Made by a program: the position numbers and the translations under genes
Shown here: positions 2,649 to 18,835 of the stretch, one piece after another
Layout: every line of letters begins with the position of its first letter
How positions within the stretch are numbered: position 1 is the stretch's first letter
The notes under the pieces: generated by a model
What the model was told of the DNA's origin: nothing
Seen by the model: only the letters and a program-made list of their open reading frames with translations
The model's database searches: none
Assembly (NCBI GenBank): GCA_934246625.1
Contig: CAKQHZ010000001.1
Coordinates: 616,223-648,222 of the forward strand
Length of the DNA stretch: 32,000 bases
Source of the DNA: an uncultured Alphaproteobacteria bacterium
GTDB lineage: Bacteria; Pseudomonadota; Alphaproteobacteria; Rs-D84; CACZYB01
Direction of reading: 5' to 3'

Positions 2649-3179
2649 ATGTTTATTAAATTAAAAAAATATATAACAGATATTTTGGAATCTATTGAAG
2701 AATATCCATTTTTCTTTTTTTGTTTTTTTCAAATAATTTTTTTTATTTGGTTTTATAAGATACCGTTATTACATAATTATATTTATAAATTAATTACTCC
2801 TAGTGAAATCTACAAGGATATAATAACTACAATAGCATCTTTTGATGGAATATTATACTCTTTATTTTTTACTGAATTTTTGAGTAAATATAAGGAAATT
2901 GGTCAAATATATTCTGATAACAAATATGTTATGAAAAAAATAAAAAAAATAATTTTGAAATTTACTTCACTGGTTTTATTCAATTTTATAGTAGCTTTAT
3001 TTTGTTTACATAAGTTTGATAAAGATTTATTTATTGACGCAAAATATATGTTTATATTATTTTTGAATTTTGCTTTTGTCGTTACTTTTTACTATTTAAA
3101 TTTTGGAAAAATGAATAAAATGTATTCTACTAAATATCTTATTGAAGGTTTAAAGGAGAATATTGATGAATATTTTTAA
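2649..3179 (+). CDS. Hypothetical multi-pass membrane protein (3-4 predicted TM segments)
   Basis: ORF with hydrophobic stretches (YPFFFFCFFQIIFFIWFY, FTSLVLFNFIVALFCL, YMFILFLNFAFVVTFYYL). It overlaps the next gene by 14 nt. No family recognised. Confidence 0.55.
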   Translation: MFIKLKKYITDILESIEEYPFFFFCFFQIIFFIWFYKIPLLHNYIYKLITPSEIYKDIITTIASFDGILYSLFFTEFLSKYKEIGQIYSDNKYVMKKIKKIILKFTSLVLFNFIVALFCLHKFDKDLFIDAKYMFILFLNFAFVVTFYYLNFGKMNKMYSTKYLIEGLKENIDEYF

Positions 3180-5223
3180 AAAGAATTATAATAATTATTA
3201 TGAATATATAGATAATTTATTAAAAATATTTGAAAATTCTGTAAAATATTTTTATACAAGTAAAAATTCTTTGGTAATTACTGATGAAACATTTAAGGAA
3301 ATTTTATCTAAAATAATAGATATATATAAGAAAATTTTAAATAGCCCTAAAAAAGAATTGCATTATAAAGAGACAAAAATTAAAGATGATGTAAATTCGA
3401 ACTTTTATATTCTGTTTAACCAGGATCAGTATATTGAAACTGTTAAGATTTTAAAAACAATATTTGATATATACCAATATTTATGTGATAATAATGATAA
3501 AGATTTAAAAGAAAAAATTCATTATACAATATATGATTTATTACTTTTTTCTTCATCGAAAGAAGATAATCAAGCCGAGGTCAATTATATATTGGACCGA
3601 TTATTTTTATGTATGTTGTCTGATAAAAATACATTAACTATTTATTATAATTTTTACACAATTGTATTCGATAGATTCCGACAAGAAAAATTTAATAATA
3701 TATATTTAACTTCATTTAATAAATATGCTTTAAATATTTTAAAGCACCTATTAGATATAGATAACATGAAAGCTTTTAAATGTGTCGTAGATATTTCAAT
3801 AAATAAATCTATGGATATTTATGATTCATACGGGGAAAATATAGATAAATTAAAAATAAATAAATTTAGAGAATTATTTTTAAAAACTACTTCTTTTGCT
3901 TTATATAAAAAAAATTATGAAGCTTTAGATATTCTATTTAATTTTCATACCCCAAAAGATTACACTGTTTTCTGGGAGAATAAAGATATTTTACCACATT
4001 CTTTAAAAGAAGTTTTTGAATGGGTATATAATAACAATATATGGGTAGAAGAATTAGAAGATCATCATGGTATAGCATCTTATTACGAAAAATTAATATA
4101 TTTATTAATATTAAGAGCTTTATATAATAACAATAATATTAGTAAGGATACTATAAATTTAAGAGATTTAGAAAATATTAATTTTTCAGATTTACATAGA
4201 ATACAAAAATTTAATTTAAAAGCATTAAAAGATTTTCATCCAAATACGAAATATAATGAGAAGGATTTAGAACAATCCGAAAAAGAGGTTCTTTCTGTAG
4301 TTAATGATATATTTAACAATAATAAGTTATTGGATATTATTGGCATAAATGAAGATAATATAGATAAAATTAAAAATGAATTTATTGACGCTTTAAAGAT
4401 AATTTCAAAATTAGCCAATGAAATGGAAATAAATATCATAAAAAAATCACAATGCTCAAATGAAAAAATAAATAATGTAAGAAACGAAATATTTAAAAAT
4501 TATCAAAAAAATAATAATTTATTATCAATATTTAACCAATATAATTTGATTTCAAATGATTATTATAATAATTTTGACACTTCATATATTGGTTATAATG
4601 TAGCCCTTTCTAAAGAAATATTCATTGACAATTATGGGGTTTCATTTGTCGGTATGGAAGCTGATTTTTCAGAAGGAATATATCGAAGAGAGAATTTAAT
4701 AATATTAGATGAAGTCAGGAAAAAAGTTCAGCAAAAATATTTAGAAGATTTGGAAAATGTAATAACTAAAAGTGAAAATAAAGAAGATTTATTTATTATT
4801 TTAAATTATGCTGATTTATTTAATTTAAGATCATTACAAAAAACAATGAATATAACATTAAAGGATAAATATCTATTTTCAGAAGAAGAAAAAAATACAT
4901 ATAAAGAATTTAATCTAAATAATTTTGTTGGTATTTTAATGTGTAATAATATTTCTATTCCTGTCTACTCTTGTTTTATGGGAGACAATAAGTCACAATT
5001 GTTTTTATTATCAAAAAATAGAGAAAAATTTGGAAGTGTCATAGAATATATATATAATGGTGAAGATAAAGAATATTTTGATGAACAAACAAAGTTATTC
5101 TGTAAATTATCAGAATTTGAAGATAAAAAAAGAGTTTTATTACAATTATATAAGAAAATAGATATTAATCTATCTGATAGTTTTGAAGGATATATGATAT
5201 CGTTAAAAGATACAGTATACTAG
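3166..5223 (+). CDS. Large hypothetical protein (685 aa from ATG 3166), no recognisable domain
   Basis: Long uninterrupted ORF in AT-rich DNA. AAGGAG (3153-3158) lies 7 nt upstream of ATG 3166. No P-loop, nuclease or other motif was recognised by eye. Confidence 0.7.
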   Translation: MNIFKKNYNNYYEYIDNLLKIFENSVKYFYTSKNSLVITDETFKEILSKIIDIYKKILNSPKKELHYKETKIKDDVNSNFYILFNQDQYIETVKILKTIFDIYQYLCDNNDKDLKEKIHYTIYDLLLFSSSKEDNQAEVNYILDRLFLCMLSDKNTLTIYYNFYTIVFDRFRQEKFNNIYLTSFNKYALNILKHLLDIDNMKAFKCVVDISINKSMDIYDSYGENIDKLKINKFRELFLKTTSFALYKKNYEALDILFNFHTPKDYTVFWENKDILPHSLKEVFEWVYNNNIWVEELEDHHGIASYYEKLIYLLILRALYNNNNISKDTINLRDLENINFSDLHRIQKFNLKALKDFHPNTKYNEKDLEQSEKEVLSVVNDIFNNNKLLDIIGINEDNIDKIKNEFIDALKIISKLANEMEINIIKKSQCSNEKINNVRNEIFKNYQKNNNLLSIFNQYNLISNDYYNNFDTSYIGYNVALSKEIFIDNYGVSFVGMEADFSEGIYRRENLIILDEVRKKVQQKYLEDLENVITKSENKEDLFIILNYADLFNLRSLQKTMNITLKDKYLFSEEEKNTYKEFNLNNFVGILMCNNISIPVYSCFMGDNKSQLFLLSKNREKFGSVIEYIYNGEDKEYFDEQTKLFCKLSEFEDKKRVLLQLYKKIDINLSDSFEGYMISLKDTVY

Positions 5224-5319
5224 TAGATAACTTATAAATTTAACTAAAATTTTTATATTTGCATAATTTGTATTTCTGATATAGATATATTCTATATATC
5301 AAAAACAAGTGAGGTTGAT

Positions 5320-5415
5320 ATGAAGATGTTCTTTTTGTGGTGTATATTCTTTACAAATTTCCCGCTTTGGTTGTTTTGGTACATTTTTTTACGTAATAAT
5401 AATTCTAAAAAGTAA
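5320..5415 (+). CDS. Candidate 31-aa hydrophobic peptide (MKMFFLWCIFFTNFPLWLFWYIFLRNNNSKK)
   Basis: ATG 5320 is preceded by GTGAGG 5-6 nt upstream, and the stop TAA is at 5413-5415, 8 nt before the next gene. Too short to be in the ORF track, so support is weak. Confidence 0.3.
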   Translation: MKMFFLWCIFFTNFPLWLFWYIFLRNNNSKK

Positions 5416-5423
5416 GATAATTA

Positions 5424-7787
5424 ATGATAAAAAAACACTTATCAGAAATCAAAGAGTTAATGCAAGAATGGGATTATGAAGCTAATAAAGATTTAGATCC
5501 TACAAAACTTACTGTTGGTAGTAAAGAAAACGTTTTATGGAAGTGTTCAAAATGTGGTTATCATTGGCATGCTATGATTAATAGGAGATATAGTAATCAT
5601 ACTGGATGTCCTGCATGTGCAAATAAAGTATTTGCAAAAGGGTATAATGATTTAGAAACAATATATCCAGAAATAGCAAAAGAATGGCACCCAACAATGA
5701 ATGGAAATTTGACTCCAAGTGATGTTAAACCAGCAAGTCTTAATCGTGTATGGTGGTTATGCCCAATTTGTAATAATGCTTACCAAAAAAGAATTATGGA
5801 TAGAGTAAAAAAGGGATCTAAATGTAATAAATGTTGTGATCCTAAAGTAATACAGGGAAAAAATGATATTGCTACAAAATTTCCAGATTTATTAAAGGAA
5901 TGGAATTATGAAAAAAATTATCCATTTTTACCACAAAATTTTTCTTATGGAAGTACAAGAAAATTTTGGTGGAAATGTTCAAAATGTAATTATGAATGGA
6001 TGGCTACAGCTTTAAATAGAAATAATTCAGGTTTTGGATGCCCAGTATGTAAACAATCTTCTGGTGCAATAAAAGGATTAACAGATTTAGGAAAAACACA
6101 TCCTGAACTAGCTAAAGAATGGGATTATGAAAATAATAAAAATCTAACACCAGAACAAGTTAAAGCAGGTTCAGGAAAAAATGTATGGTGGAAATGTCTT
6201 AAATGTCATTGCTCCTATAAAACACAAATAATTGCGAGAGTTAAAGGCAGAGGTTGTCCGAATTGTAAAGATACAGGAGTTGTAGATGGATTTAATGATT
6301 TTCAAACATTATATCCAAATCTTGTAAAAGAATGGCATCCAACAAAGAATACTAAAAAGCCAAATCAAATAAAATCGAAGTCTAAGTATAATGCTTTTTG
6401 GATATGTCCAACATGTGGATTAGTTTGGCAAGCACCTGTGGTAAGTCGAGTTGTCCAAGGGAGAGATTGTCCTGCATGTAATGATACTTCATTAGTTCCT
6501 GGAGTTAATGATTTAGCAACAAAATTTTCTGAAATTGCAAAAGAGTGGCATTCTACTAAAAATGGAGATTTAACTCCAAAAGACGTAAAATATGGAAGTC
6601 GTAAAAAAGTATGGTGGAAATGTTCTGTATGTAGTAAAGAATGGGAAACAACTATTGATAGTCGAACAAGACAATTATCTGGTTGTCCTCGATGTTTAAA
6701 TTCGAAACAAACATCATATCCAGAACAAGCGATTTATTATTATGTTCAACAAATATATCCAGATGCTATTAATAAATATAAAGCTGATTTTTTAGGAAGA
6801 ATGGAACTAGATATTTTTATTCCATCAATTAATTTTGCAATTGAATATGATGGTGAAGCTTGGCATAGAGAAAATAAGCGTTCAATGGAACAAAGAAAAT
6901 ATAAACTTTGTCAAAATAAAGGGATTAAACTTATAAGAATTAGAGAAAAACTTACATCTTTAGGTTGTGAAATTTCTGATGATCAGATAGGTATTGTTAA
7001 ATTAAATGGTAAAAATAGTTTGGAAGAAACAATAAAATATTTAATTAATAAAATTAATTTTACAGGCAAAAATATTCATGTCGATTTAATAAATGATGAA
7101 ATGTTAATTCGTTCATTATGTCATGGGAATCCTAAAGATTCTTTAGAAAAATTATTTCCAGAATTAGTTTGTGAATGGCATCCAACATTGAATAAAGATT
7201 TGAAACCTGAAAATGTATCATGTGGATCTAATCTAAGAGTTTGGTGGCTATGCCCTAAATGTAGCCAATCTTACAAAGCATCTATTAATCATAGAGTAAA
7301 AAGTAAATCAGGTTGTCCGGTATGTTCAAATAGGAAAGTAGCAACTGGAATTAATGATTTATTTACTACAAATCCGGATTTAGCTAATGAGTGGCATCCA
7401 ACAAAAAATGGAAGTTTAACACCTCATGATGTTACATATGGTTCAGGCAAAAAAGTTTGGTGGTTATGTCCTAAATGTAAATATGAATGGTTTCAAAGTG
7501 TAAATAGAAGAACTTCGATGAAATTAGGTTGTCCTTGTTGTACGGGAAAAAAATTAATAGTTGGTAAAAATGATTTAGCAACAGAATGTCCAGAATTAGC
7601 AAAAGAATGGCATCAAACTAAAAATGGAAATTTATCTCCAAAAGATGTAAAAGCAGGAAGTCATTTCCCTGTATGGTGGAAATGTTCTGTATGTGGTAAT
7701 GAATGGAAAACAGATATTAGGTCAAGAGTAAAAGGACGGAAGTGTCCTAATTGTTCTAAAAAACAATTAAAACTAGATTTAAAATAG
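5424..7787 (+). CDS. Multi-zinc-ribbon protein with central PD-(D/E)xK (Vsr/DUF559-like) nuclease-fold domain
   Basis: Nine copies (6 N-terminal, 3 C-terminal) of a ~55-aa unit, EW(H/D/N)xxxNxxLxPxxVxxGSxxxVWWxCxxCxxxWxxxxxxRxxxxxGCPxC (CxxC...CxxC zinc ribbon, DUF4379-like). The central part, YPEQAIYYYVQQIY...MELDIFIPSINFAIEYDGEAWH...KYKLCQNKGIKLIRIRE, resembles the D...ExDG...K core of Vsr/DUF559 endonuclease-like domains. Confidence 0.85.
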   Translation: MIKKHLSEIKELMQEWDYEANKDLDPTKLTVGSKENVLWKCSKCGYHWHAMINRRYSNHTGCPACANKVFAKGYNDLETIYPEIAKEWHPTMNGNLTPSDVKPASLNRVWWLCPICNNAYQKRIMDRVKKGSKCNKCCDPKVIQGKNDIATKFPDLLKEWNYEKNYPFLPQNFSYGSTRKFWWKCSKCNYEWMATALNRNNSGFGCPVCKQSSGAIKGLTDLGKTHPELAKEWDYENNKNLTPEQVKAGSGKNVWWKCLKCHCSYKTQIIARVKGRGCPNCKDTGVVDGFNDFQTLYPNLVKEWHPTKNTKKPNQIKSKSKYNAFWICPTCGLVWQAPVVSRVVQGRDCPACNDTSLVPGVNDLATKFSEIAKEWHSTKNGDLTPKDVKYGSRKKVWWKCSVCSKEWETTIDSRTRQLSGCPRCLNSKQTSYPEQAIYYYVQQIYPDAINKYKADFLGRMELDIFIPSINFAIEYDGEAWHRENKRSMEQRKYKLCQNKGIKLIRIREKLTSLGCEISDDQIGIVKLNGKNSLEETIKYLINKINFTGKNIHVDLINDEMLIRSLCHGNPKDSLEKLFPELVCEWHPTLNKDLKPENVSCGSNLRVWWLCPKCSQSYKASINHRVKSKSGCPVCSNRKVATGINDLFTTNPDLANEWHPTKNGSLTPHDVTYGSGKKVWWLCPKCKYEWFQSVNRRTSMKLGCPCCTGKKLIVGKNDLATECPELAKEWHQTKNGNLSPKDVKAGSHFPVWWKCSVCGNEWKTDIRSRVKGRKCPNCSKKQLKLDLK

Positions 7788-7801
7788 ATTTAGAAATTTT
7801 A

Positions 7802-7835
7802 ACTTCATAGTTTAGGATTATGCAAACTATGAAGT
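7802..7835 (+). terminator. 12-bp perfect hairpin after the zinc-ribbon gene (possible terminator, no T-run)
   Basis: acttcatagttt (7802-7813), 10-nt loop, aaactatgaagt (7824-7835). Confidence 0.4.
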
Positions 7836-7970
7836 ATAAGCAATAATCATATCCAAATTATAGTAACCAAGAACTTCTTTCTATATTTTTTTTAAAGCAT
7901 GATTTACGACAGTTGCAAAATTTGCAGTTATCGAGTTTTCTGCAAATTAGCCATCATTAAAGTGGAAAAC

Positions 7971-7997
7971 TAGTTACGAATGGTATAGGATTAGTAT
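7971..7997 (+). repeat. 27-nt direct repeat, copy A
   Basis: tagttacgaatggtataggattagtat matches 25/27 with 8095-8121. Confidence 0.7.
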
Positions 7998-8094
7998 TCT
8001 CCCAACCAAAATAGAGAATTTTAGAAAATTTGAAAAAAAATGATGAATATGGTAAAACACTAAGAAAACTCTATATTGGAGCAGTTTTCGAGAA

Positions 8095-8121
8095 TAGTTA
8101 TGAATGGTATAGGATTAATAT
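8095..8121 (+). repeat. 27-nt direct repeat, copy B
   Basis: tagttatgaatggtataggattaatat lies about 65 nt upstream of att-like copy 2. Confidence 0.7.
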
Positions 8122-8184
8122 ATAGTCGAAATGGATTGACCGATTTCTGCGGTTTAGAAATTGTTCGGGAATGGATATAAACCC

Positions 8185-8226
8185 CCCACCAAAAATTCAA
8201 AAAGGCTTCCGAAAGGGAGCTTTTTT
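8185..8226 (+). repeat. Direct repeat copy 2 (tRNA-Lys 3' end plus terminator), internal att-like junction
   Basis: Sequence is cccaccaaaaattcaaaaaggcttccgaaagggagctttttt. The stretch aaaaattcaaaaaggcttccgaaagggagctttttt is identical to copy 3. Copy 1 differs by two 1-nt gaps. Confidence 0.7.
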
Positions 8227-8506
8227 CTTTGCCTATAGACCCTAGATTCTTCCTAGTGTAATAATTAGAGATAATCTATAAGTTATTTAGAAATTTCTTT
8301 TTAAGCATTTTCTCTCTATTCTCTATGCTTTATCCGAAGAACGCCTTATGTATTTGAATATACTTAATTTTATAACTGCGGATACAATAGAAAAGTTGTA
8401 GAAAATCTGTGGAGTAGCAAAAAGTATCAAAAAACTAGCTTATGATCTACAGTTTTAAAGGTTTATTTTCCTTGAAAGTAGTTTTTATAGGAGTATAATA
8501 CATCTT

Positions 8507-8821
8507 ATGTATAATAAAAAGGATGTCAAAATGGCTGCAAATTTCAAAAGAAAAGGAAATGAACTTAGAGATATACATACTCGTCTTATTGGAAAAATTG
8601 ATGGTAAATATATTCGTGATGCACATGCTTGTCTTATGGGCAAAATTGATGGAATGGATGTAAAAGATAAACACGGTATAAAAATTGGTCGTTTAGATGG
8701 GGATTACATTCGAGATGTACATAATGTAAAAATTGCAACAAGAAAAGATTTAATAAAGTCAATAGATGGAACAACAGGTGGTATTGAAGATGTCGCTCTA
8801 TATTTGTTTTTTGTAAGATAA
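8507..8821 (+). CDS. Small protein made of four tandem 16-aa repeats
   Basis: Repeats are ELRDIHTRLIGKIDG / KYIRDAHACLMGKIDG / MDVKDKHGIKIGRLDG / DYIRDVHNVKIATRKD, consensus xx(I/V)(R/K)DxHxxx(I/M)G(K/R)(I/L)DG. An alternative start at ATG 8531 has AAGGA 9 nt upstream. Confidence 0.5.
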   Translation: MYNKKDVKMAANFKRKGNELRDIHTRLIGKIDGKYIRDAHACLMGKIDGMDVKDKHGIKIGRLDGDYIRDVHNVKIATRKDLIKSIDGTTGGIEDVALYLFFVR

Positions 8822-8840
8822 ATTTTAAAAAGGGGGCAAA

Positions 8841-9548
8841 ATGGAAAATAAAAAAGAAACAAAGATAGATAATTTTTTAGCATATATTGCTGGTATATGT
8901 GCATTTATTGGTATATGTGCGATAGTTTATAAATTATATCTTTTTGGATTTACAAGAGAAAATATTGCTGATGCTTCAATAAATCTTGCACAAATTTTAA
9001 CAAGTATTGGTGTCTTGTTTGGAGTTCTTTCATCACTTAGAACTTTATTAAAATGTCCTAAAAGTTATTTTTTTAAGGAGTTAGAAAAGTGGAATAAAAA
9101 ATATGGTATATTAACAGATTGCAGCGAAGAATATGAAAAAGGTAAGGGAAAATTTATTAAATGCCAAATGTTGAGAAATCATGCAAATATATTAAAAAAT
9201 AAAGATAACCTTGAAGAACATTCAAAGGCATATATAAATTTTGTTAGAATTCCAACAGAAAATTTAGATGGAAATAAAATAATTTTTTCTTTAAAACCAT
9301 CAATGTTTAAAAAAAATGACAGAAAAGAACTTGAAAAATATGCTGAAAAAATAGTTGAAAAATTAAAAATAAGATATAGCGAAATTATTGATGATGACAA
9401 AGTTAAAATTTCATCTTTTGACAGAAAAGATGAAGTTATATATATTCATCTCGGATTAAACAGTGAATTAGATAATAAAAAAGAAATTTACAATCAAATC
9501 ATAGATATGCTTGATTATATGACTATGGTGTATCTTGCAATAGCTTAG
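8841..9548 (+). CDS. Hypothetical protein with two N-terminal TM helices
   Basis: GGGGG RBS 4 nt upstream of the ATG. TM candidates are FLAYIAGICAFIGICAIVYKLYLFGF and LAQILTSIGVLFGVLSSL. The remainder is charged and unassigned. Confidence 0.6.
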   Translation: MENKKETKIDNFLAYIAGICAFIGICAIVYKLYLFGFTRENIADASINLAQILTSIGVLFGVLSSLRTLLKCPKSYFFKELEKWNKKYGILTDCSEEYEKGKGKFIKCQMLRNHANILKNKDNLEEHSKAYINFVRIPTENLDGNKIIFSLKPSMFKKNDRKELEKYAEKIVEKLKIRYSEIIDDDKVKISSFDRKDEVIYIHLGLNSELDNKKEIYNQIIDMLDYMTMVYLAIA

Positions 9549-9637
9549 TTTAATTTATTCAATACATTGCATCGTAAGGATAGTATATTGAATGGTTCGT
9601 GTAAACTTTTTAAATAAAAATAATAAGAAGTGTAAAA

Positions 9638-10198
9638 ATGAATAAAGAAAATATAATATCTTTTTATGTTGAAATAATAAAATCGATATTGGAAATCTAT
9701 AGATTAAATCAAAATAAAAATACTCAAAAAATTACCAAAAGAATTTTAAATTGGATTATTCGCGAATATAAGGGAAAAATAAAATTATATGCATCAGAAG
9801 ATGCAATAAAATGGGCAAAAAGCCAAGGTATTAATGATAACCTTTCAAATTATAATTGGAAAGATCAAGTAAAAAAGAAAGAAAAAGGTGGTCTTGGGGA
9901 TAAAAAAAGAGAAAATTTACATCTTGAACATATTATTCCTATTTCTCAAATAATAGAAAATTTATTTGAAACAAAAACTTCCAATAATATACAAAATATA
10001 TTAAATGAAATTTCTGTTGCTTGGATTAAAAGGGATCAACAACAAAAATTAGATAAAGGACATAAAAAAGAAAGAGGTGAAAATTTAAAAAAATGTTTAG
10101 AATGTTGTAAAGAATATTGTGGTGAATTGACAGAAATTGGTGAGTACAAAGTACCTTTGGATTATGATAATGAAAGTGAAAAAAATGATATTTTGTAA
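9638..10198 (+). CDS. Hypothetical protein, possible His-Me finger (HNH/DUF1524-like) motif
   Basis: The ORF contains NLHLEHIIPISQ followed about 30 aa later by ISVAWIKRDQQQKLD, reminiscent of HNH-type nucleases. This assignment is weak. Confidence 0.5.
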   Translation: MNKENIISFYVEIIKSILEIYRLNQNKNTQKITKRILNWIIREYKGKIKLYASEDAIKWAKSQGINDNLSNYNWKDQVKKKEKGGLGDKKRENLHLEHIIPISQIIENLFETKTSNNIQNILNEISVAWIKRDQQQKLDKGHKKERGENLKKCLECCKEYCGELTEIGEYKVPLDYDNESEKNDIL

Positions 10199-10454
10199 GT
10201 TTTTTATTTCTTTAACTGGCATATTAGGGTGTTTACAAATATCAAACTTACAAATTTCTTCATGCGTTAATTTTCTTTCTAATATTTTTGAAAGTTTAAA
10301 AGACAAAGAATTTAGAATAGAAATTGATAGATTGAATTTTATATTTACTCCAACTTTAAAAACTGGTTTTAACTTTGATTTAGATTTTGATTTTAAATCA
10401 TTTGATTTCGAAGTTTCATTATTAGGATTGGATTTAAAACTTAAACTTTGGTGA
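10185..10454 (+). CDS. Possible small lipoprotein (hypothetical)
   Basis: The internal ATG at 10185 gives MIFCKFFISLTGILGC, a lipobox-like ILGC. The rest is rich in F/D/L dipeptide-like strands. There is no clear RBS. Confidence 0.3.
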   Translation: MIFCKFFISLTGILGCLQISNLQISSCVNFLSNIFESLKDKEFRIEIDRLNFIFTPTLKTGFNFDLDFDFKSFDFEVSLLGLDLKLKLW

Positions 10455-10460
10455 TAAATT

Positions 10461-10793
10461 ATGTATTATTTAGATAAAGTTATTTACAAAAATTATAAAG
10501 ATATTTTTCATTTAGAATTTTTTTTTGAATTAAAAAGATTTTTTGATATTTCTATAAACATTTTCAATATAATTAATGGTGGATTTTATATAAGAAATTA
10601 TACAAAGCCAGATGATTTTTTCTATGATTCAAAACCAATTTGTTTGTATAAATTAAAAAATATTCATTTTAACTTTGGATATAATAAAGATCTTTATACA
10701 GGTATGGAAATAGGAGATTATCTATCTAATTCAAAAAATAATTTTTATATTCAATTTGGAATTTTAGGATTGATATTTTCTATAGGTCAGTAG
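10461..10793 (+). CDS. Hypothetical protein
   Basis: Supported by the ORF only. It starts 6 nt after the previous stop. Confidence 0.35.
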   Translation: MYYLDKVIYKNYKDIFHLEFFFELKRFFDISINIFNIINGGFYIRNYTKPDDFFYDSKPICLYKLKNIHFNFGYNKDLYTGMEIGDYLSNSKNNFYIQFGILGLIFSIGQ

Positions 10794-11111
10794 GTAAAAT
10801 ATAATTTATTTCCGGATAAAATATATTTTCATTTGTTAGTGATTTTGTGGTAACAAATTTTATCTTGCTATTTTTGGGATAATTACGATATGTTTGTCTA
10901 AAATGAGGCAGATAAAATGTGTAATTTTGATTTAAGAGAAATTGTTGAAGAAAATTTAAATAAAAATTTTGTTTTTTTTACTGGTTTTATACAAAAGATT
11001 TATATAAGATGAAGATTCCTGTGAATTTTTGTGATATTAACTTTTTTTTCTTTACATATAATATACTAAAAAATATAGTATGATTTATTCTTCTATATAC
11101 AGGATTATGTT

Positions 11112-11441
11112 GTGTCAAAATTAAAAGAATTTATGGATATTGATGATTTATCTTCAGCAGATATTGTTGATTTCTTATTTGGTAGTTTAAAACTATTAGA
11201 AAAAGACCCTTCTATTATTTCAAAGATAATTGATGACAGCAAAGATGGCAAAATATGTATGTATATTATTAGTAATCTTGAGGTACAAAGATGGGAACAA
11301 GTAGTATCAAAAAATGATAGAGCATTATGTATTAAATCTCTTAGATATTTATATAGTAAATTACCAAATGAACAAAAAAAATACTATAAAATAGAATTTT
11401 TTGATAAACACCCAGAAATTTTTGAAGGTCAAAACATCTAA
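11112..11441 (+). CDS. Hypothetical protein
   Basis: ORF with a GTG start and AGGA 8 nt upstream. No family recognised. Confidence 0.45.
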   Translation: MSKLKEFMDIDDLSSADIVDFLFGSLKLLEKDPSIISKIIDDSKDGKICMYIISNLEVQRWEQVVSKNDRALCIKSLRYLYSKLPNEQKKYYKIEFFDKHPEIFEGQNI

Positions 11442-11512
11442 TGAAAAGATAAAGAATAGTATTTAATCCATCTTTTCAGTTAATTTCTTTATCAAAGCTA
11501 TATGCTTTTTTA

Positions 11513-12418
11513 TTACAAAAATTCTTTTATCAACTTTGGCAAAAGTTTATTTTGTTTCTTGCTTCCATGACCAAAACTATCAATAATATGCAAAGTTGAT
11601 TTTGGCATAGCTTTGTGTAAAGTATATGCCTGTTCAAGTGGAGTACAGAAATCCAATCTGTTACCAATTATAAGTGTTGGAATATTTTTAATTTTGCCAA
11701 TATTTTCGATAATTTCATTTTCTTTTATAAAATAGTGTTCTGTATAGTAATGCATATAAATTTTAAAGGAATTAACTACCTTATCCCCCAGTTCTTCATC
11801 AAGATTTATTTTTAACTTACCAATTTGATAATCATAGTTTGTAAGATATTTTACAGTCTTTTTAATTTTAGCATTACTTTGCTTAAATAAATTTTCCAAA
11901 TCTTTGTGAGTTTTTATAAGATATGGTGAAAGTTTTTCAATTATGTCAGGGTAGAACATCTTTGAATCTTTGTATGTCCAATTTGCATCTTTCTTCCTTG
12001 CTAAGAAAGTTTGTGATACAATTATTTTATCAACTAATTCAGGGTATGTTTCTGCAAACAAAAGTGCAAGTGTAGAACCCCATGAACCACCAAAAGAAAT
12101 TACCTTTTCTTTTATATTAAGGAAATCAAGAATTCTTTTTGCATCTTTAATTGTATCTTGAGTGGTATTTTTATAAAATAAATCTTTAAATTCAGAATTT
12201 CCACAACCACGTTGATCAAAAATAATTACTTTATAATTTTTGAGATTACAACATTTTACATATTTAAATTTACTTCTTGCTCCTGGACCTCCATGAAAAT
12301 TTAAGATGGTTTTCCCATTTGGGTTACCAAATACTTGGAAGTAAATTTTATGTCCATCAAGTTCGGGAAGATATCCTTTAAAAATAGCCTTTGGCTTATG
12401 TGAAAATATATGAAACAT
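11513..12418 (-). CDS. pip: Proline iminopeptidase (prolyl aminopeptidase, S33 alpha/beta hydrolase)
   Basis: HGGPG oxyanion motif (FHGGPGARS), nucleophile elbow GGSWGSTLAL, C-terminal SFGHGS, about 300 aa. Confidence 0.85.
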   Translation of the reverse strand: MFHIFSHKPKAIFKGYLPELDGHKIYFQVFGNPNGKTILNFHGGPGARSKFKYVKCCNLKNYKVIIFDQRGCGNSEFKDLFYKNTTQDTIKDAKRILDFLNIKEKVISFGGSWGSTLALLFAETYPELVDKIIVSQTFLARKKDANWTYKDSKMFYPDIIEKLSPYLIKTHKDLENLFKQSNAKIKKTVKYLTNYDYQIGKLKINLDEELGDKVVNSFKIYMHYYTEHYFIKENEIIENIGKIKNIPTLIIGNRLDFCTPLEQAYTLHKAMPKSTLHIIDSFGHGSKKQNKLLPKLIKEFL

Positions 12419-12437
12419 TCTATTGCCTTTTTTTAAT

Positions 12438-12472
12438 ATAATATATAATTATTAACATAATATATAATTATT
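12438..12472. promoter_or_regulatory. Perfect 16-bp direct repeat in a divergent promoter spacer (candidate operator)
   Basis: ataatatataattatt occurs at 12438-12453 and again at 12457-12472, inside the 66-bp spacer between pip (-) and the AlaRS-like operon (+). Confidence 0.35.
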
Positions 12473-12484
12473 TCAAGGTGTTAA

Positions 12485-13594
12485 ATGAATAATTATAAAG
12501 AATTTGTATCTGAAATTTCTTCTTTTTTTAATTTAGAAAAAGTATCTGGTGAATATTTCCGATTTAAAGATCAAAAAAATATTAGTAATTTCCCTAAACA
12601 ATCTATTCATGAATATTTTAATGATGTTCCATTAATTCCTGCGGATAATGTCATAAGAACTGATGATAGTACAACGCTTTTTACATGTGCTGGAGTGCAA
12701 CATATAGAAACAATGATAAAAAATAATGAAATTTTAAAAGATTTTAGTATTTATCAACCATCTATAAGAACTCAGTTTATTGGTAAAACAAAAGAAGGAG
12801 TTTCTACATCTTTTGTTAATTTTTCTTCAACTATATTTAATATTTCGAATGATAAATTTTTAGATAAAACAAAAAGTTATATTTCTTTACTTAATAATTA
12901 TGGATACAATAATAATGATTTATTAGTTAGATTTGAAGAAAGATCTAATGCTTGGGGAACTAAAAAATTTACTACATATGTTGCTAGTTTATATTATAAT
13001 AATTTTAGAATGGGAGAATGTATTTTTATGAAATATTTTCCCATAAATTCAAATCAAGTTTCTAATATTATGGAAGTCGGATTTGGTCTAGAAAGAATGG
13101 AATGGTTATCAAAAAAAAATAATTATTATTTTTCTAGATACAAAGAAATTTATGATCAATTTAAAAATAATGATGTTTCTATTGATCAAATTACAACTAT
13201 CATTGATTCTGTAAGAACTTCAATCTTAATTGCTGGTAATGGAATAGTTTCAAGTAATAATAATCATGGATATAGATTAAGACAGTTATTAAAGCATTTT
13301 GTTTTTAATAATGCCAATATATCAATACCTTTAAATAAATTAGAACGAATAGCATATGATGAATGGAAATCTAATACATTCGTTCAGTATGATAAAATAT
13401 GTGATATTATAGGAAAAGAAGTTGAAAGAAATGAACATGCATATTTATTAGATTTATTAAAGAGGTGTAATATAAAAACAAATATAGATATAACATTACC
13501 AAATGATGCTTTTATAAGATCTTTAAAAAGTCGTATTTATAGAGAGAATACAGACGTGATATTAGATAAATTATTTAAAGAAAAGGTTAAATAA
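12485..13594 (+). CDS. Truncated alanyl-tRNA-synthetase-like protein (class II catalytic core only, 369 aa)
   Basis: Matches to E. coli AlaRS recalled from memory: TLFTCAGVQH ~ LFTNAGMNQF, SIRTQ ~ CVRAGG, FVNFS ~ LGNFSF, EVGFGLERMEWL ~ DTGMGLERIAAVL, IIDSVRTSILIAGNGIVSSNNNHGYRLRQLL ~ [31 protein letters not shown]. It lacks the editing and C-Ala domains. Confidence 0.8.
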   Translation: MNNYKEFVSEISSFFNLEKVSGEYFRFKDQKNISNFPKQSIHEYFNDVPLIPADNVIRTDDSTTLFTCAGVQHIETMIKNNEILKDFSIYQPSIRTQFIGKTKEGVSTSFVNFSSTIFNISNDKFLDKTKSYISLLNNYGYNNNDLLVRFEERSNAWGTKKFTTYVASLYYNNFRMGECIFMKYFPINSNQVSNIMEVGFGLERMEWLSKKNNYYFSRYKEIYDQFKNNDVSIDQITTIIDSVRTSILIAGNGIVSSNNNHGYRLRQLLKHFVFNNANISIPLNKLERIAYDEWKSNTFVQYDKICDIIGKEVERNEHAYLLDLLKRCNIKTNIDITLPNDAFIRSLKSRIYRENTDVILDKLFKEKVK

Positions 13595-14266
13595 ATGGGA
13601 GCTCTAATTTCTGATTTTTTATCTTACAAGCATTCTGTTTATGATGAAATTTCTGATTTATCAAAAAAAGAGATAGATAATTTTTACTCTTTTATATTAG
13701 GTGGTGTAAAATTTAATAATTCAAGTCCTAAACTTATTATGATGTTGGGTATTAGTGGAGCGGGGAAAAGTACATTTTTTAATAATGCAAAGCAATATTA
13801 TAAAGATTATGCTTTTTTATCAGGTGATGAAATTATGCATAATTTACAAATTTTTAAAGAATTAAAATTATTAAATAAATCATCACATAATGATTTTCGA
13901 ATTTGTGAAACAATTTCTAGAAAGCTATCATTCTATATTTTAGATTATTTAATTTCAAATAAAGCAAATATTTTTTATGATTGTGGAGGTTTGGATTTAA
14001 ATAAAAAAAATATGGTTAGATATATAAGTGATTTGGGATATAAAATAGAAATTAATGCTATTCTAGCAGATAAAAAAATTGCTATCGATAGAGTAATAAA
14101 ACGTCATTATAAAAATGGAGGTGGTTATATACCAGTTGATTTAATTGAACAAAATTTCAATGAGGTTTTACCAGCTATTAATTATTATAAGCAATTTGTT
14201 GATAAGATAAATATTTATAACAATAATAATAAAATTTTTTTAGAAGAAACTTATATAAAAAGATAA
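13595..14266 (+). CDS. P-loop kinase (zeta-toxin / APS-kinase-like small-molecule kinase fold)
   Basis: Walker A is MMLGISGAGKST, followed by FLSGDEIMHNL (compare (I/L)DxDxxRxxH in zeta toxins and LDGDNVRHGL in APS kinase). The ATG directly follows the stop of the upstream gene. Confidence 0.7.
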   Translation: MGALISDFLSYKHSVYDEISDLSKKEIDNFYSFILGGVKFNNSSPKLIMMLGISGAGKSTFFNNAKQYYKDYAFLSGDEIMHNLQIFKELKLLNKSSHNDFRICETISRKLSFYILDYLISNKANIFYDCGGLDLNKKNMVRYISDLGYKIEINAILADKKIAIDRVIKRHYKNGGGYIPVDLIEQNFNEVLPAINYYKQFVDKINIYNNNNKIFLEETYIKR

Positions 14267-14276
14267 GGAGTTTTAT

Positions 14277-15527
14277 ATGGATATTTGTATTTTTAATTCA
14301 AACACTAATGTTAATGCACAAGATTATGAAGTCGTTGAACGTAAAGGTATTGGCCATCCTGATACAATCTGTGATACTTTAGCAGAAAAGATAAGTGCTA
14401 ATTATTCTCTATATACATATCAAAAATATGGACATATATTTAGACATATGATTGATAAATTATCTATTTTAGGGGGAAAAACAAAAGTTTATTTTGGAGG
14501 TGGAGAATTTATAAAACCTATAAGAATACTACTAAATGGACGATTTACTGGAAACTTCTGTGATGAAAAAATTCCATATATTGATATTGCTACAGAAACT
14601 ATTTATAAACATATGAAATTCCTATTTCCTATGATAGATTGTAAAAAAAATATAGAAATAATAGATAATACGCATTCATCGCAAGGTCCTGGTGTTGTAT
14701 ACAAAAAAGATGGAACAACGAATAATGAACGTTCTAGTTTTTTTAACATAAAAAATGAAGCATTTATGCAATATCATAATAATATGAATAGAACAAATGA
14801 TACATCTACTACTGTTAGTTTTTATCCATATACAGTTCTAGAAAATGTTGTGTTATTTGTAGAAAATCAATTAAATTCTGAAGAATTTAAAAAGAAGTAT
14901 CCTTTTGTTGGTAACGATATAAAAGTAATGGGAACAAGAATTGGCAAAAACATAGATATTACAACTTGTATACCTTTTATTTCTTTATATACTCCTGATA
15001 AAAATTTTTACAAAGACAATATAAGCTTTTTAAAAAATCTTTTAATCAATATGTTATCAAAAAAATATTCGGATTATTCTTTTAATATTTCTATAAATAC
15101 AAGAGATAATTTAGAAAACGATGATTTATATTTAACATTAACAGGAAGTGCTGTTGAAAGTGGAGATGAGGGGGCCGTTGGACGAGGTAATAGAAGTTGT
15201 GGATTTATTCCTTTTTGCCGTAATGTATCTTTAGAGGCTCCGTGTGGTAAGAATCCTGTATATCATACAGGGAAGTTATTTACTGCTATTGGAAATATTA
15301 TATCTAATAGAATTTATAGCCAAACAGGCATTGAAAATACTGTTTATTTAACAAGTCAGATGGGGGGTAAAATAGAAGAAACTTGGAAGATTGCTATTGG
15401 TTTAACAAATAGTCCTTCTATTTCACTAGAATTAAAAAATACAATTGAAGATATTGTAAATGAAGAGTTAAAAAATCATAATAAAACTACACAAGATATA
15501 ATTTTGGAAAAGATAAAATTATATTAG
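14277..15527 (+). CDS. Archaeal-type S-adenosylmethionine synthetase (MAT)-like protein
   Basis: EVVERKGIGHPDTICD, RILLNGR, LTLTGSAVESGDEGAVGRGNR and EAPCGKNPVYHTGK match the archaeal MAT family signature (M. jannaschii MAT recalled from memory), not bacterial MetK. AAGGAG lies 6 nt upstream of the ATG. Confidence 0.85.
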   Translation: MDICIFNSNTNVNAQDYEVVERKGIGHPDTICDTLAEKISANYSLYTYQKYGHIFRHMIDKLSILGGKTKVYFGGGEFIKPIRILLNGRFTGNFCDEKIPYIDIATETIYKHMKFLFPMIDCKKNIEIIDNTHSSQGPGVVYKKDGTTNNERSSFFNIKNEAFMQYHNNMNRTNDTSTTVSFYPYTVLENVVLFVENQLNSEEFKKKYPFVGNDIKVMGTRIGKNIDITTCIPFISLYTPDKNFYKDNISFLKNLLINMLSKKYSDYSFNISINTRDNLENDDLYLTLTGSAVESGDEGAVGRGNRSCGFIPFCRNVSLEAPCGKNPVYHTGKLFTAIGNIISNRIYSQTGIENTVYLTSQMGGKIEETWKIAIGLTNSPSISLELKNTIEDIVNEELKNHNKTTQDIILEKIKLY

Positions 15528-15646
15528 ATAAAATTTAATATACTTAAGATTTATTCCTATGAAAATAATATTAAGTGTAGGCTAAATGACTTTTTATAGA
15601 TGAGTTTTTTATGGTTGGTTTCGGTTATCCGAAATAGATTAGAAAC

Positions 15647-15707
15647 CTGTAGAATAGCAAAAAGACTGACTTTTAGAAAAGTTAGAGAAAGGTTCACAAT
15701 CACCCAC
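15647..15707 (+). pseudogene. Degenerate fragment of a tRNA-Lys (D-arm to 3' end)
   Basis: ctgtagaatagcaaaaag-ACTGACTTTTA-gaaaagttagagaaa-GGTTCA-caat-CACCCAC. The capitalised blocks are identical to the anticodon arm, T arm and acceptor 3' strand of the tRNA-Lys at 2012-2087. caatcacccac matches the CUU isoacceptor at 18760-18835. Confidence 0.45.
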
Positions 15708-15746
15708 TAAAAATTCAAAAAGGCTTCCGAAAGGGAGCTTTTTTTA
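15701..15746 (+). repeat. Direct repeat copy 3 (tRNA-Lys 3' end plus terminator), attR-like
   Basis: Sequence is cacccactaaaaattcaaaaaggcttccgaaagggagcttttttta. It has the same T7 followed by att as copy 1. The sequence to its right is visibly GC-richer. Confidence 0.7.
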
Positions 15747-15962
15747 TTGTGTATCGGTCTAGATGATGGGTGTTGAGGTCTTTACAGCCCAGTCAATTCT
15801 AAACTCTGTCATTTGTGTCATTTCGAACTTGTTTCGGAATCTTTCTCTTATACCTTTCTAAAATAGGATAAAGTTCTTTACATATATTCTCAAATATGAT
15901 ATTATGAGAGTGTCCATGAAGAATAAAGGAGAAGAAAAATGATTAGACAAAATAGACGAATT

Positions 15963-15971
15963 GGGGGGGGG
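15963..15971 (+). repeat. Homopolymeric G9 tract (candidate slipped-strand phase-variation site)
   Basis: Nine consecutive G in very AT-rich DNA, inside a 15-codon ORF (ATG 15939, AAGGAG at 15926-15931) and 78 nt upstream of the 248-aa ORF. Confidence 0.6.
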
Positions 15972-16048
15972 CTTTTGCTTGCATAGATTTCATTGGTAGT
16001 TGCAGTTTTGCACGAACTATTGGAAACGTCTTCACTTTCGCAGTTATT

Positions 16049-16795
16049 TTGTTGAAATTTTTCTTATTTCTTAGCATTTCAAATATAGCAATGGCGAATG
16101 AAATTTTTGACAATGAAAATATTAAAAAACTTGATAGTGCTGTATCAAATATTGTTAATGAAGTAAAAAATCGTTATCCAGAAGATAGTTCTGAACTTAA
16201 TTTTACCGATGACATTCAGGATCAAACAAAACTTAGTATTATCCGCACAATATTGGCAAAAAATATATACAATGAATATAAAGAAAAATTTATTCAGGAA
16301 GTGCAAAACAAGTCGGATTCAAGTGGGCGGACATTAAAAAAGACCATTGATGGAAATTACACTGTTTATTCATTAAAAGGTGGTGAAAAAGATTGCTTTA
16401 CAGACAACTTGGGTAATGAAATTTGCGACCAAGATTCAAATGTTGAATTTGTGTTGTTGGAAGTACATGAAGAAAAGGACGGTGATAATTTTTCAGGAGA
16501 CCTTTGGTATATGACACAAGATAAGGAAAACCAAAAAGCAAAGACTTATGATGTTGTGGCTGAATTTAATACAAAAGGAAATGCCAGTGATTCAACATTG
16601 GTGATTAGCGAGCATGTTATGGATTTATCTGATGCACAGGCGATGTTAAAAAATGATTATGAACAAGAAAAATTTACAAAAAAATATCATTCTAGAAACT
16701 ATCCAAAATCACTTCAATATACGATAAAATCAGGTGAAATTAGTTCCTTTAGCTACGACGAAGTTGAAGAGGGAAATTTTGGAGAAATAAGATGA
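16049..16795 (+). CDS. Secreted hypothetical protein (start uncertain)
   Basis: The TTG start at 16049 gives a Sec-like leader MLKFFLFLSISNIAMA/NE but has no RBS. The frame is open back to 15956 and would be joined to ATG 15939 by a +1 G change. The stop overlaps the next start (ATGA). Confidence 0.6.
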   Translation: MLKFFLFLSISNIAMANEIFDNENIKKLDSAVSNIVNEVKNRYPEDSSELNFTDDIQDQTKLSIIRTILAKNIYNEYKEKFIQEVQNKSDSSGRTLKKTIDGNYTVYSLKGGEKDCFTDNLGNEICDQDSNVEFVLLEVHEEKDGDNFSGDLWYMTQDKENQKAKTYDVVAEFNTKGNASDSTLVISEHVMDLSDAQAMLKNDYEQEKFTKKYHSRNYPKSLQYTIKSGEISSFSYDEVEEGNFGEIR

Positions 16796-17871
16796 AAAAA
16801 GTTTCAATATTAGTTTTGGTAAGTTTTATTTTTAATTGTGGTGAGGCTTTTTCTTCACCAAGAAATTCAAGGGTAAGAGCCTCCGGTGGAAGACGTGCCT
16901 TTGTCCGTAGTGTGGGAAGTGAAAATGCTGGCGGTGTTGCCGTTCAAACTTCGACAGAGGAAACTGTATCTGCTTCTTCTACCTTTGATGCTGATATTTC
17001 GATTTCTGGGGAGAAGGTAAATACCGTGGAGGTTCGTGAAAAAATTGCCAACCTTCAACAAAAAATTTCTGAAGTTCGTTCCGAATGTTCTGGCATTAAA
17101 AAGGACCTTGATACAATATTCGGTTTCACGACTGCAACCACTGCTACCTCTGGTCTTGGTGGTGTTGCGTCTGGTGGTGCTTTGGTAACTGGAATTATAA
17201 AGGTGAAAACGGATAAGAAATTGGAGGACCTTTCCAAACTTTCGTCCGTTGATTTGTATAATTATGCCCTATCGTTGGAAAATGAGGAAAAGAAAACAAA
17301 ATTTGAAAAGAAATCCAAAACTTTGGGAAATGTCAGAACCGGACTTATGGCAGGTGCGACGGTGACAAGTGTTGTTTCAACCGGAACCTCAATTGGGGCA
17401 ACTGTGAATGCTGATAAACTTGCGAAAAAGATGTCTGATTGCAACCAAAAATTGTATGAATTGAAAATTGCAAAATCGGAATTGGATTCCCTTGAATCAA
17501 CCGACAAATCGGCGGTTGAGGTTGGCGAAAATGCAACCAAAATTTTAAGTGTTTGCACTGGATACAATAAAAACAATATAGATACTACTGTGAAGAATAA
17601 AATGATTGCCTCTGCAATCATCTCTGGTATTGGAACTGCAACTGGTGCAACGGGAACGATTACTTCCGCGATGGCTAATTCAAAGAAAGTTCGCGAAGAC
17701 GACAGTGTTAAGGGGCAAAAGAAAGAGAAAAACTTGAACCTTACTGCAAACATTATGGCTGGAATCACGACTGGAACAAGTTTGTCAACTACGGTTATAA
17801 GTGCCACTGCTATTGCCGATGCCCAAAAAGACAGTAAGATGGCAGAGAAATGTGAGGCAGTGTTGAAGTAA
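16792..17871 (+). CDS. Secreted protein with four Gly/Thr/Ala-rich glycine-zipper-like segments
   Basis: GGAG RBS 7 nt upstream and signal peptide MKKVSILVLVSFIFNCGEAFS. The four segments are TSGLGGVASGGALVTGII, GLMAGATVTSVVSTGTSIGATV, ASAIISGIGTATGATGTITSAMA and NIMAGITTGTSLSTTVISATAIA. They are separated by charged, coiled-coil-like spacers, each with a single Cys. Confidence 0.75.
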   Translation: MKKVSILVLVSFIFNCGEAFSSPRNSRVRASGGRRAFVRSVGSENAGGVAVQTSTEETVSASSTFDADISISGEKVNTVEVREKIANLQQKISEVRSECSGIKKDLDTIFGFTTATTATSGLGGVASGGALVTGIIKVKTDKKLEDLSKLSSVDLYNYALSLENEEKKTKFEKKSKTLGNVRTGLMAGATVTSVVSTGTSIGATVNADKLAKKMSDCNQKLYELKIAKSELDSLESTDKSAVEVGENATKILSVCTGYNKNNIDTTVKNKMIASAIISGIGTATGATGTITSAMANSKKVREDDSVKGQKKEKNLNLTANIMAGITTGTSLSTTVISATAIADAQKDSKMAEKCEAVLK

Positions 17872-17993: not shown

Positions 17994-18027
17994 AAAAAAA
18001 ATCCCCCAGTTATGCCGAGGGATTTTT
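17994..18027. terminator. Bidirectional hairpin terminator (best fit for the minus-strand HTH gene)
   Basis: A7 (17994-18000), ATCCC (18001-18005) pairing with GGGAT (18019-18023), then T4. Read on the minus strand, the hairpin is followed by T7. Confidence 0.55.
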
Positions 18028-18112: not shown

Positions 18113-18346
18113 TTACCCCTCTAAATATTTAGAGAATTGCTCCCAGGAAAGGTTTGTCGCCCTCATAACCTTACAAATACTCTCCGTAGATGGCCATCTG
18201 AATTTGCCACTAGGATAAAACCTTTTACTCTTATTAAATGCTGTAGCATCAAGACCTGCCTTTTTAGCCAAAGCAGAAACAGAAATACCGTTTATGTATG
18301 CAATCTTGTCAATAGTCCCCCAGATTTTAGAATGTTCTGTATCCAT
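18113..18346 (-). CDS. Cro/CI-type HTH protein (phage-repressor N-terminal-domain-like, 77 aa)
   Basis: The internal ATG at 18346 with AAGGAG 7 nt upstream is preferred over the listed 18433 start. The sequence IWGTIDKIAYINGISVSALAKKAGLDATAFNKSKRFYPSGKFRWPSTESICKVMRATN resembles the HTH domain of alphaproteobacterial phage-repressor/S24-type regulators. There is no peptidase domain. Confidence 0.7.
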   Translation of the reverse strand: MDTEHSKIWGTIDKIAYINGISVSALAKKAGLDATAFNKSKRFYPSGKFRWPSTESICKVMRATNLSWEQFSKYLEG

Positions 18347-18493
18347 AACACAACTCCTTTGATTATAACTCTCTCTTACGACAATCTCATACAATATATT
18401 ACAACTTATACTAGAAAATAAAAAGAAATACAAGAGGAAGATATTCTTATCGTGGGGGATAAGAAAATACTTTGTTGAAATTTTAATAATTAT

Positions 18494-18759: not shown

Positions 18760-18835
18760 TGGTGGGTGATTGGGGATTTGAACCCCAGACCCACTGATTA
18801 AGAGTCAGTTGCTCTACCAACTGAGCTAATCACCC
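18760..18835 (-). tRNA. tRNA-Lys (anticodon CUU), CCA encoded
   Basis: The reverse complement folds as GGGTGAT-TA-GCTC-AGTTGGTA-GAGC-A-ACTGA-CTCTTAA-TCAGT-GGGTC-TGGGG-TTCAAAT-CCCCA-ATCACCC-A-CCA (76 nt). Confidence 0.9.

Follow-up and report, generated by a model that had tools for sequence, protein, structure and literature searches.

Does a run of nine G residues close to the 5' end of a two-gene operon act as a heritable switch, or does it mark a frameshifted gene? The question is raised by a locus in a 32 kb stretch of DNA from an uncultured gut alphaproteobacterium (contig CAKQHZ010000001.1; GC 28.1%), the whole of which is referred to here as the window. The operon encodes two predicted exported proteins, gene 1 and gene 2, and the poly-G tract (G9 in the window; 15963-15971, + strand) occupies codons 9-11 of the reading frame that opens at the only well-equipped start of gene 1, where it is the frame-setting, hypermutable element, ranging from G7 to G11 among 28 loci. 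Combined, the anatomy of the locus and the natural variation in tract length indicate that the operon is likely to be subject to heritable, tract-driven ON/OFF switching, that is, to translational phase variation at a simple-sequence contingency locus. The window represents the commonest OFF state, G9.

The elements of the putative switch are compact. A Shine-Dalgarno (SD) sequence, AAGGAG (15926-15931, +), was identified by direct reading, is invariant across all loci and is separated by a 7-nt spacer from ATG 15939. In the G9 state this start codon opens a dead-end open reading frame (ORF) of 15 codons (15939-15986, +; ATG ATT AGA CAA AAT AGA CGA ATT GGG GGG GGG CTT TTG CTT GCA TAG) which encodes MIRQNRRIGGGLLLA followed by a stop. 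The frame of the long ORF is closed on its upstream side by TAG 15953-15955 and is open from 15956 to a stop at 16795. The SD, ATG 15939, the tract and the 15-codon ORF are all located where the first-pass annotation of this DNA had placed them, and its reading of the downstream frame as open back to 15956 holds, the TAG lying just before that position. Its description of the tract as the only long G/C homopolymer in the window is also correct, as the longest other G or C run in the 32 kb is 6 and G9 is the sole run above that length. Base composition predicts ~0.0036 G/C runs of 9 or more in a 32-kb window against the one observed, a count that applies to this one stretch. The run is therefore both unexpected from composition and within the length range associated with hypermutability (~7-8 nt or more).

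Simulation of tract lengths from 5 to 13 indicated how the frame depends on the number of G residues. ATG 15939 is joined to the long ORF with 7, 10 or 13 G, producing proteins of 284, 285 and 286 aa, respectively, and every other length in this range leads to a stop after 14-20 codons, the OFF lengths of 8, 9 and 11 G stopping after 15-20 codons. The tract is thus positioned where the gain or loss of a single G links or unlinks a functional start and the ORF. The start called mechanically for the long ORF in the G9 state is TTG 16049. A purine-rich SD was looked for by direct reading before TTG 16049 and before the internal ATG 16091 and none was found at either, in agreement with the earlier observation that TTG 16049 has no visible ribosome binding site.

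On this basis, slipped-strand mispairing during replication would alter the length of the poly-G tract in codons 9-11 of the first gene of the operon and would thereby shift the link between the long ORF and its sole well-equipped start, comprising a promoter-like site, AAGGAG and ATG 15939. With 7, 10 or 13 G, translation would proceed from ATG 15939 through the leader and a hydrophobic core to a cleavage site between AMA and NE, giving a Sec-exported product of ~232 residues. With 8, 9 or 11 G, translation would stop early, the long ORF would be left with an SD-less TTG and gene 1 would be OFF or expressed at a very low level. The predicted leader of the ON-state precursor consists of 52 residues, with a basic N-terminus, Gly2-3, a weakly hydrophobic, Asp-containing segment, a conserved hydrophobic core and the AMA-NE site. 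Because the Gly residues and the leader belong to the portion predicted to be cleaved off, a change in the number of Gly residues would carry no cost for the mature protein.

The natural variation in tract length carries this interpretation. The tract was read directly in every retrieved locus with this leader, yielding a sample of 28 distinct tract-leader loci from separate gut metagenome assemblies, the window included, all of them consensus assemblies; contig L042 is the same as L004 and was counted once. By exact-protein look-ups, the locus was traced to assemblies of human gut metagenomes, the Hadza and MERR22 sets among them. A scan of the JGI metagenome collection for the tract flank returned 0 matches and the tract-bearing lineage is absent from that collection. 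Five tract lengths were observed: G9 in 17 loci (OFF, the window among them), G10 in six (ON; L001, L003 and L014-L017), G7 in two (ON), G8 in two (OFF) and G11 in one (OFF). G9 is also the typical modal length of Campylobacter and Helicobacter contingency tracts. At G10 and G7 loci, gene finders call genes of 285 and 284 aa, respectively, from the ATG equivalent to 15939. Both of the frame-restoring slips anticipated in the first-pass annotation, +1 (G10) and -2 (G7), therefore occur naturally, and the read-through peptide it had predicted for ten G is identical to the protein called in other assemblies (P0006, P0009). Products P0006, P0009 and P0013 (285/284 aa) begin with the first eight codons from ATG 15939, the predicted true N-terminus of the ON state. 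The comparison with related strains proposed there also favours phase variation, with G7-G11 present in the 28 loci within flanks that are identical or nearly so.

The genetic background on which the lengths differ is informative. The loci comprise at least four haplotypes that are 33-53 substitutions apart per 2.1 kb (~2%), and in three of these, 36-53 SNPs apart, loci with 0 differences over 2115-2160 nt have unequal tract lengths. In the first, the window, L002 and L004 carry G9 and L001 and L003 carry G10; in the second, L008-L013 carry G9 and L014-L017 carry G10; and in the third, L018 and L033 carry G7 and L029 and L031 carry G8. Since each of the three haplotypes holds otherwise identical loci that differ in the tract, its length has changed independently at least three times on backgrounds free of other mutation, the direction of the changes being unpolarised. 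The A7 and T7 runs within the same ~2.1 kb are of constant length within haplotypes, and the poly-G tract is uninterrupted by point mutation in every locus.

Illumina platforms are prone to errors at homopolymers of 9-10 G, and some contigs break at the tract, as would be expected if the true length were fixed and the differences had been introduced by sequencing or assembly, an alternative already raised in the first-pass annotation. This we consider highly improbable. The five lengths recur across independent samples and assemblers (G10 in six loci, G9 in 17), loci of one haplotype are otherwise free of indels and SNPs over 2.1 kb, even at the A7 and T7 runs, and the G7 and G8 alleles are restricted to one haplotype, a distribution unlike that of random error. 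Four additional contigs either start just past the tract or have an N-gap over it (L005, L030, L032, L034), which hints at heterogeneity at this site, such breaks and gaps being the behaviour expected of assemblers where sequences are heterogeneous.

Independent evidence bears on whether ATG 15939 is used as a start and whether the sequence between it and TTG 16049 is translated. For this comparison, tract-bearing loci are termed type B and the plain-leader loci of a sister lineage type A. A promoter-like site (TTTACA, 17 nt, TG-n-TATTAT; 15877-15905, +) with 10/12 matches and an extended -10, detected as a consensus match only, ends ~34 nt 5' of ATG 15939. The segment from 15892 to 15962, comprising the -10 element, the SD and the first eight codons, is invariant in all type-B loci, whereas the 55 nt upstream of it (15837-15891) contain 10 variable sites. 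Downstream of the tract, the leader segment that is translated in the ON frame only (AFACIDFIGSCSFARTIGNVFTFAVI; 15972-16048, +) contains five SNPs among the loci, four of them at third codon positions of the ON frame, where they leave the amino acid (F, T, F, T) unchanged, and the fifth being a conservative A-to-V change. The chance of at least four of five SNPs falling at one prespecified codon position is ~0.045, and a start at TTG 16049 would leave this segment outside the coding sequence. These features, namely the promoter-like site, the invariant -10, SD and start, the synonymous SNPs and the lack of an SD at TTG 16049 and ATG 16091, identify ATG 15939 as the predicted real start, and the pattern of substitution points to a leader that is under constraint in the ON frame.

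The tract could alternatively tune expression rather than switch it, with full-length protein produced from G9 templates through RNA-polymerase slippage, ribosomal frameshifting or re-initiation at TTG 16049/16052. Such leakage is compatible with phase variation. The TTG-started product, MLKFFLFLSISNIAMA.., is a short but plausible signal peptide that resembles MNKRLLYIFLFF.. of the sister lineage, and the short ORF ends just 62 nt before TTG 16049, as re-initiation might use. There is, however, no SD before TTG 16049 or ATG 16091, and folding of the leader RNA was no better than that of shuffled sequences (z = -0.06), providing no sign of a stimulatory structure. In-frame genomic alleles exist, so that obligatory recoding is not required, and the leader appears to be constrained in the ON frame. 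Combined, these observations make tuning a rather unlikely primary role for the tract. A programmed recoding site was considered and rejected, as the genomic tract itself varies, in-frame alleles encode the full protein, the fold is equivalent to shuffles and there is no Rfam match. An Rfam search of the leader returned no family at threshold, and with the unremarkable fold a riboswitch or leader-RNA explanation is unsupported.

The length of the called product is a poor guide to the state of the locus. In the plain-leader loci L019-L028, automatic callers place the start of gene 1 at the internal ATG (234 aa, MANE..) although a perfect SD and an ATG lie 54 nt further upstream, and the in-frame G7 locus L033 is likewise called as 234 aa from the internal ATG. 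Called product length (234 vs 285 aa) was consequently rejected as a proxy for the OFF and ON states, 234 aa being called also at plain-leader loci and one G7 locus. Because callers choose the internal ATG even where the frame is open from a proper start, database protein lengths misreport the state of gene 1, and gene models of 234 or 248 aa at this locus should be regarded as having a wrong start.

Comparison with the sister lineage indicates that the switch is not a property of the gene family. Type-A homologues (P0001-3; loci L019-28) share 88-92% aa identity with the gene-1 product and are located downstream of corA. Their start, AAAGGAG-N5-ATG AAT AAA CGA TTG TTG, leads directly into MNKRLLYIFLFFSISNIAMA, followed by NE, so that the sister leader is an ordinary 20-residue signal peptide (MNKRLLYIFLFF.., ending in AMA before NE) without a tract. 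DNA homology between types A and B starts at window position 16046 (TTGTTG), inside the signal-peptide coding region, and everything upstream is unrelated. The hydrophobic core and cleavage region of the signal peptide (16049-16096, +; ..LLKFFLFLSISNIAMA before NE), defined from alignments and hydropathy, is common to both lineages, which are predicted to release the same mature gene-1 protein. The ON-frame-only leader, in contrast, is lineage-specific and unrelated to the sequence upstream of type-A genes; no homologue of the tract-bearing leader peptide was found among 5.8 billion protein clusters and no second copy of the leader was found within the window. As the sister lineage has a plain start and signal peptide and no tract, the switch represents a lineage-specific replacement or acquisition of the 5' end rather than a family trait. 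The first-pass annotation had held that homologous loci lacking the tract would speak against phase variation. Such loci do exist in the sister lineage, and are taken to indicate lineage-specific acquisition.

The simplest origin that we infer is a transfer or recombination of the cassette into another site, in which its first codons were lost and local sequence provided the promoter, SD, ATG and G run. A more specific proposal, that a contingency switch was born when a plain, corA-adjacent cassette relocated to a tRNA-Lys island hotspot and formerly non-coding DNA was recruited as a cleavable N-terminal extension, is tentative and, in our estimate, has a somewhat less than even chance of being correct.

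Several observations weigh against regulated switching and would be accommodated if the tract were a neutral mutational hotspot in a gene on its way to loss, G9 then representing a frameshifted pseudogene state rather than a regulated OFF. The ON fraction, 8/28 (29%), is close to the one third expected under unselected drift in length, and evidence for heterogeneity inside one population is an indirect hint from consensus contigs. Gene-1 alleles within the tract lineage differ by 3.5-8 nonsynonymous against 0-1.5 synonymous changes (dN/dS ~1), although these counts are tiny, come from alleles chosen as distinct proteins and are too sparse to separate relaxed from diversifying selection. Short-term dN/dS values within species are usually inflated to near 1. 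Only one relative was found when contigs of species-representative genomes were scanned (L007, 'MAG: Alphaproteobacteria bacterium MAG035', a metagenome-assembled genome), and its copy is plain and pseudogenised. In L007 the homologous pair (3990-5107) has decayed through a TAA inside the signal peptide and a deletion in which gene 1 has lost its 3' part and gene 2 its 5' half, and since a related species carries such a copy the operon is dispensable. The locus also lies within a variable island region. Neither gene is interrupted in either state, mature gene 1 comprising 232 aa and gene 2 359 aa (the latter in every complete type-B locus); for gene 1 this intactness is partly by construction, as most loci were retrieved via full-length gene-1 products, gene 2 being mostly unselected apart from one look-up.

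Set against decay, there is no second lesion in gene 1 or gene 2 in 28 loci representing at least four haplotypes ~2% apart, and in no locus has a stabilising point mutation interrupted the tract. The synonymous-site pattern of the leader follows the ON frame, the -10, SD and start are invariant, and long-term dN/dS of gene 1 relative to the sister lineage is 0.21-0.26. Loss of the gene through neutral frameshifting is therefore judged distinctly improbable, and phase variation continues to be the preferred interpretation.

Gene 2 (16792-17871, +; 359 aa) overlaps gene 1 by ATGA and has a separate SD, GGAG (16781-16784, +), identified by direct reading 7 nt before ATG 16792. Despite this SD, its expression would probably be lowered in the OFF state, via lost coupling, polarity or mRNA decay. 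The claim in the first-pass annotation that the operon as a whole is phase-variable and OFF in this sequence is accordingly upheld in part: variation of the tract is observed and gene 1 would be OFF at G9, the OFF state of gene 2, with its own SD, being a matter of conjecture. A hairpin flanked by an A-run and a T-run (17997-18027), likely a bidirectional terminator, closes the operon.

Both products belong to families without recognisable function. The mature gene-1 protein (16097-16795, +; 232 aa) is a member of an uncharacterised secreted family and did not match Pfam, NCBIfam, PHROG or PADLOC. Exhaustive HMMER searches recovered its own cluster together with five remote homologues, secreted proteins of ~300 aa (P0162-P0166), which share a motif set of E..RYP.., R..A..Y.E and KS..GR in addition to two invariant Cys. 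All gene-1 homologues have an N-terminal signal peptide and the two invariant Cys. Weak repeat-like matches of gene 1 to Flg_new-repeat giants were regarded as unreliable. The AF2 model, of low confidence (pLDDT 57.6), predicts an N-terminal helical hairpin and a beta-sheet, and comparison with PDB folds gave no significant match.

The gene-2 product has a signal peptide, a disordered N-terminal region and an all-alpha domain; its conserved C-terminal region comprises four G/A/S/T-rich hydrophobic helices with four invariant Cys. Its 331 homologues lack Pfam domains, those that are named are all hypothetical proteins of Alphaproteobacteria MAGs, and the family is restricted to gut Alphaproteobacteria MAGs. 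Homologues P0040-P0159 have hypervariable N-terminal halves, with overall lengths of 286-583 aa, joined to the conserved, Cys-containing helical C-terminal region. In some strains the protein is 500-583 aa long and its 91% identity is confined to the C-terminal half, a pattern suggestive of domain swapping. The gene-2 AF2 model is all-alpha (pLDDT 59.2) and its best Foldseek hits in the PDB are generic long-helix proteins, TolC-type helices among them, with E of at least 0.06 and TM no higher than 0.35. An assignment of gene 2 as a ClyA-type alpha-pore-forming toxin (ClyA, Hbl, Nhe, Ahl, Smh) was rejected, as the fold hits are insignificant, pLDDT is 59 and no Pfam domain is present. We infer that genes 1 and 2 encode exported proteins of two lineage-restricted families; a toxin or adhesin role is unsupported.

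The genomic setting is a site of variable insertions. In the island-free strains L008 and L014, yceG and tRNA-Lys(UUU) directly precede the switch locus. In the window, by contrast, 13.6 kb (2125-15700) comprising two tandem islands is inserted between tRNA-Lys(UUU) (2012-2087, +) and the switch locus, and att-like copies of the tRNA-Lys 3' end plus terminator at 2079-2124, 8163-8236 and 15681-15754 bound and split the insert. A hairpin recovered by terminator scan (15717-15744, +) lies within the last of these copies and closes the upstream transcription unit. Other strains carry at the same site either an ICEA and N6_N4 methyltransferase restriction-modification pair or a RhuM protein. As strains carry differing cargo, or none, at the tRNA-Lys(UUU) site, the switch locus is situated at the edge of an island hotspot. 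The locus is closed on the right by a small HTH protein (18113-18433, -), a superinfection-immunity-like membrane protein (PF14373; 18494-18730, -) and tRNA-Lys (CUU) (18760-18835, -), so that the switch operon is bracketed by two tRNA-Lys genes.

Other genes of the window were observed in passing. Between 12485 and 15527, island 2 encodes a 369-aa protein with a fragmentary match to the class II core of alanyl-tRNA synthetase, together with a zeta-toxin-like kinase and an archaeal-type S-adenosylmethionine synthetase (PF01941, E = 7e-100). A 787-aa island protein (5424-7787) consists of nine DUF4379 treble-clef zinc-finger repeats (E = 8e-168), which correspond to the direct-repeat families D1-D4. 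At the far end, a 376-aa protein (30264-31394, -) has an Mtd_N domain (major tropism determinant N-terminus, E = 4.7e-9) and may be a candidate target of a diversity-generating retroelement; assemblies end ~1.1 kb past this gene, as expected at template and variable repeats.

The kind of system proposed here, homopolymer-mediated translational phase variation, is well known, and it is the host that is unusual. The pilC poly-G tract of Neisseria is said, from work by Jonsson et al. in 1991, to lie within the signal-peptide-coding region. The present locus resembles pilC in that a poly-G tract a few codons past the start, inside the region of the cleaved signal peptide, toggles the frame upon a change of ±1 G, the Gly codons are dispensable and tract length differs between strains; tracts of G9-G15 have been listed for pilC1 and pilC2 (PMC5320596). 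It differs in that the proteins are unrelated and match no family, the organism is an AT-rich uncultured gut alphaproteobacterium and the leader replaces a plain one that is retained in the sister lineage. In Neisseria opa, repeat number in the leader-peptide coding region similarly sets the frame of an exported protein, but the repeat is a pentanucleotide, CTTCT, in a multigene family with 11-12 switchable copies (PMC5320596), whereas here it is a homopolymer. The poly-G/C contingency genes of Campylobacter and Helicobacter, as described in H. canadensis (PMC2823697) and for the C. jejuni autotransporter capA (PMC7168839), are similar in that these gut bacteria are likewise AT-rich (~28-30% GC) and have only rare G/C runs of at least 8, which are concentrated in genes for surface or secreted proteins and switch translation. 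They belong to another phylum, however, and their genomes have ~20-30 tracts, against one in 32 kb here. The inference of phase variation from recurrent population-genomic indels on identical backgrounds parallels studies of homopolymeric tracts as switches in prokaryote genes generally (PMC2831843), in Bordetella pertussis (PMC1891110) and in M. tuberculosis (PMC10334774), with the difference that isolates and read-level data were used there and consensus metagenome assemblies here.

Homopolymer phase variation is a textbook phenomenon in a few cultured pathogens; among uncultured gut commensals or in Alphaproteobacteria there are, to our knowledge, hardly any documented cases. Here public metagenome assemblies by themselves provide a natural experiment, identical haplotypes occurring with five tract lengths and in both frames, so that switches of this type can be verified without cultures. 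Comparison with the tract-less sister lineage gives a rare glimpse of the origin of a contingency locus. If the locus did originate through relocation of a plain cassette, a constitutive secreted-protein operon would have been turned into a stochastic ON/OFF system in one uncultured human-gut species. The two uncharacterised secreted families involved, one with more than 330 members, probably experience fluctuating selection, imposed by host immunity, phage or competitors.

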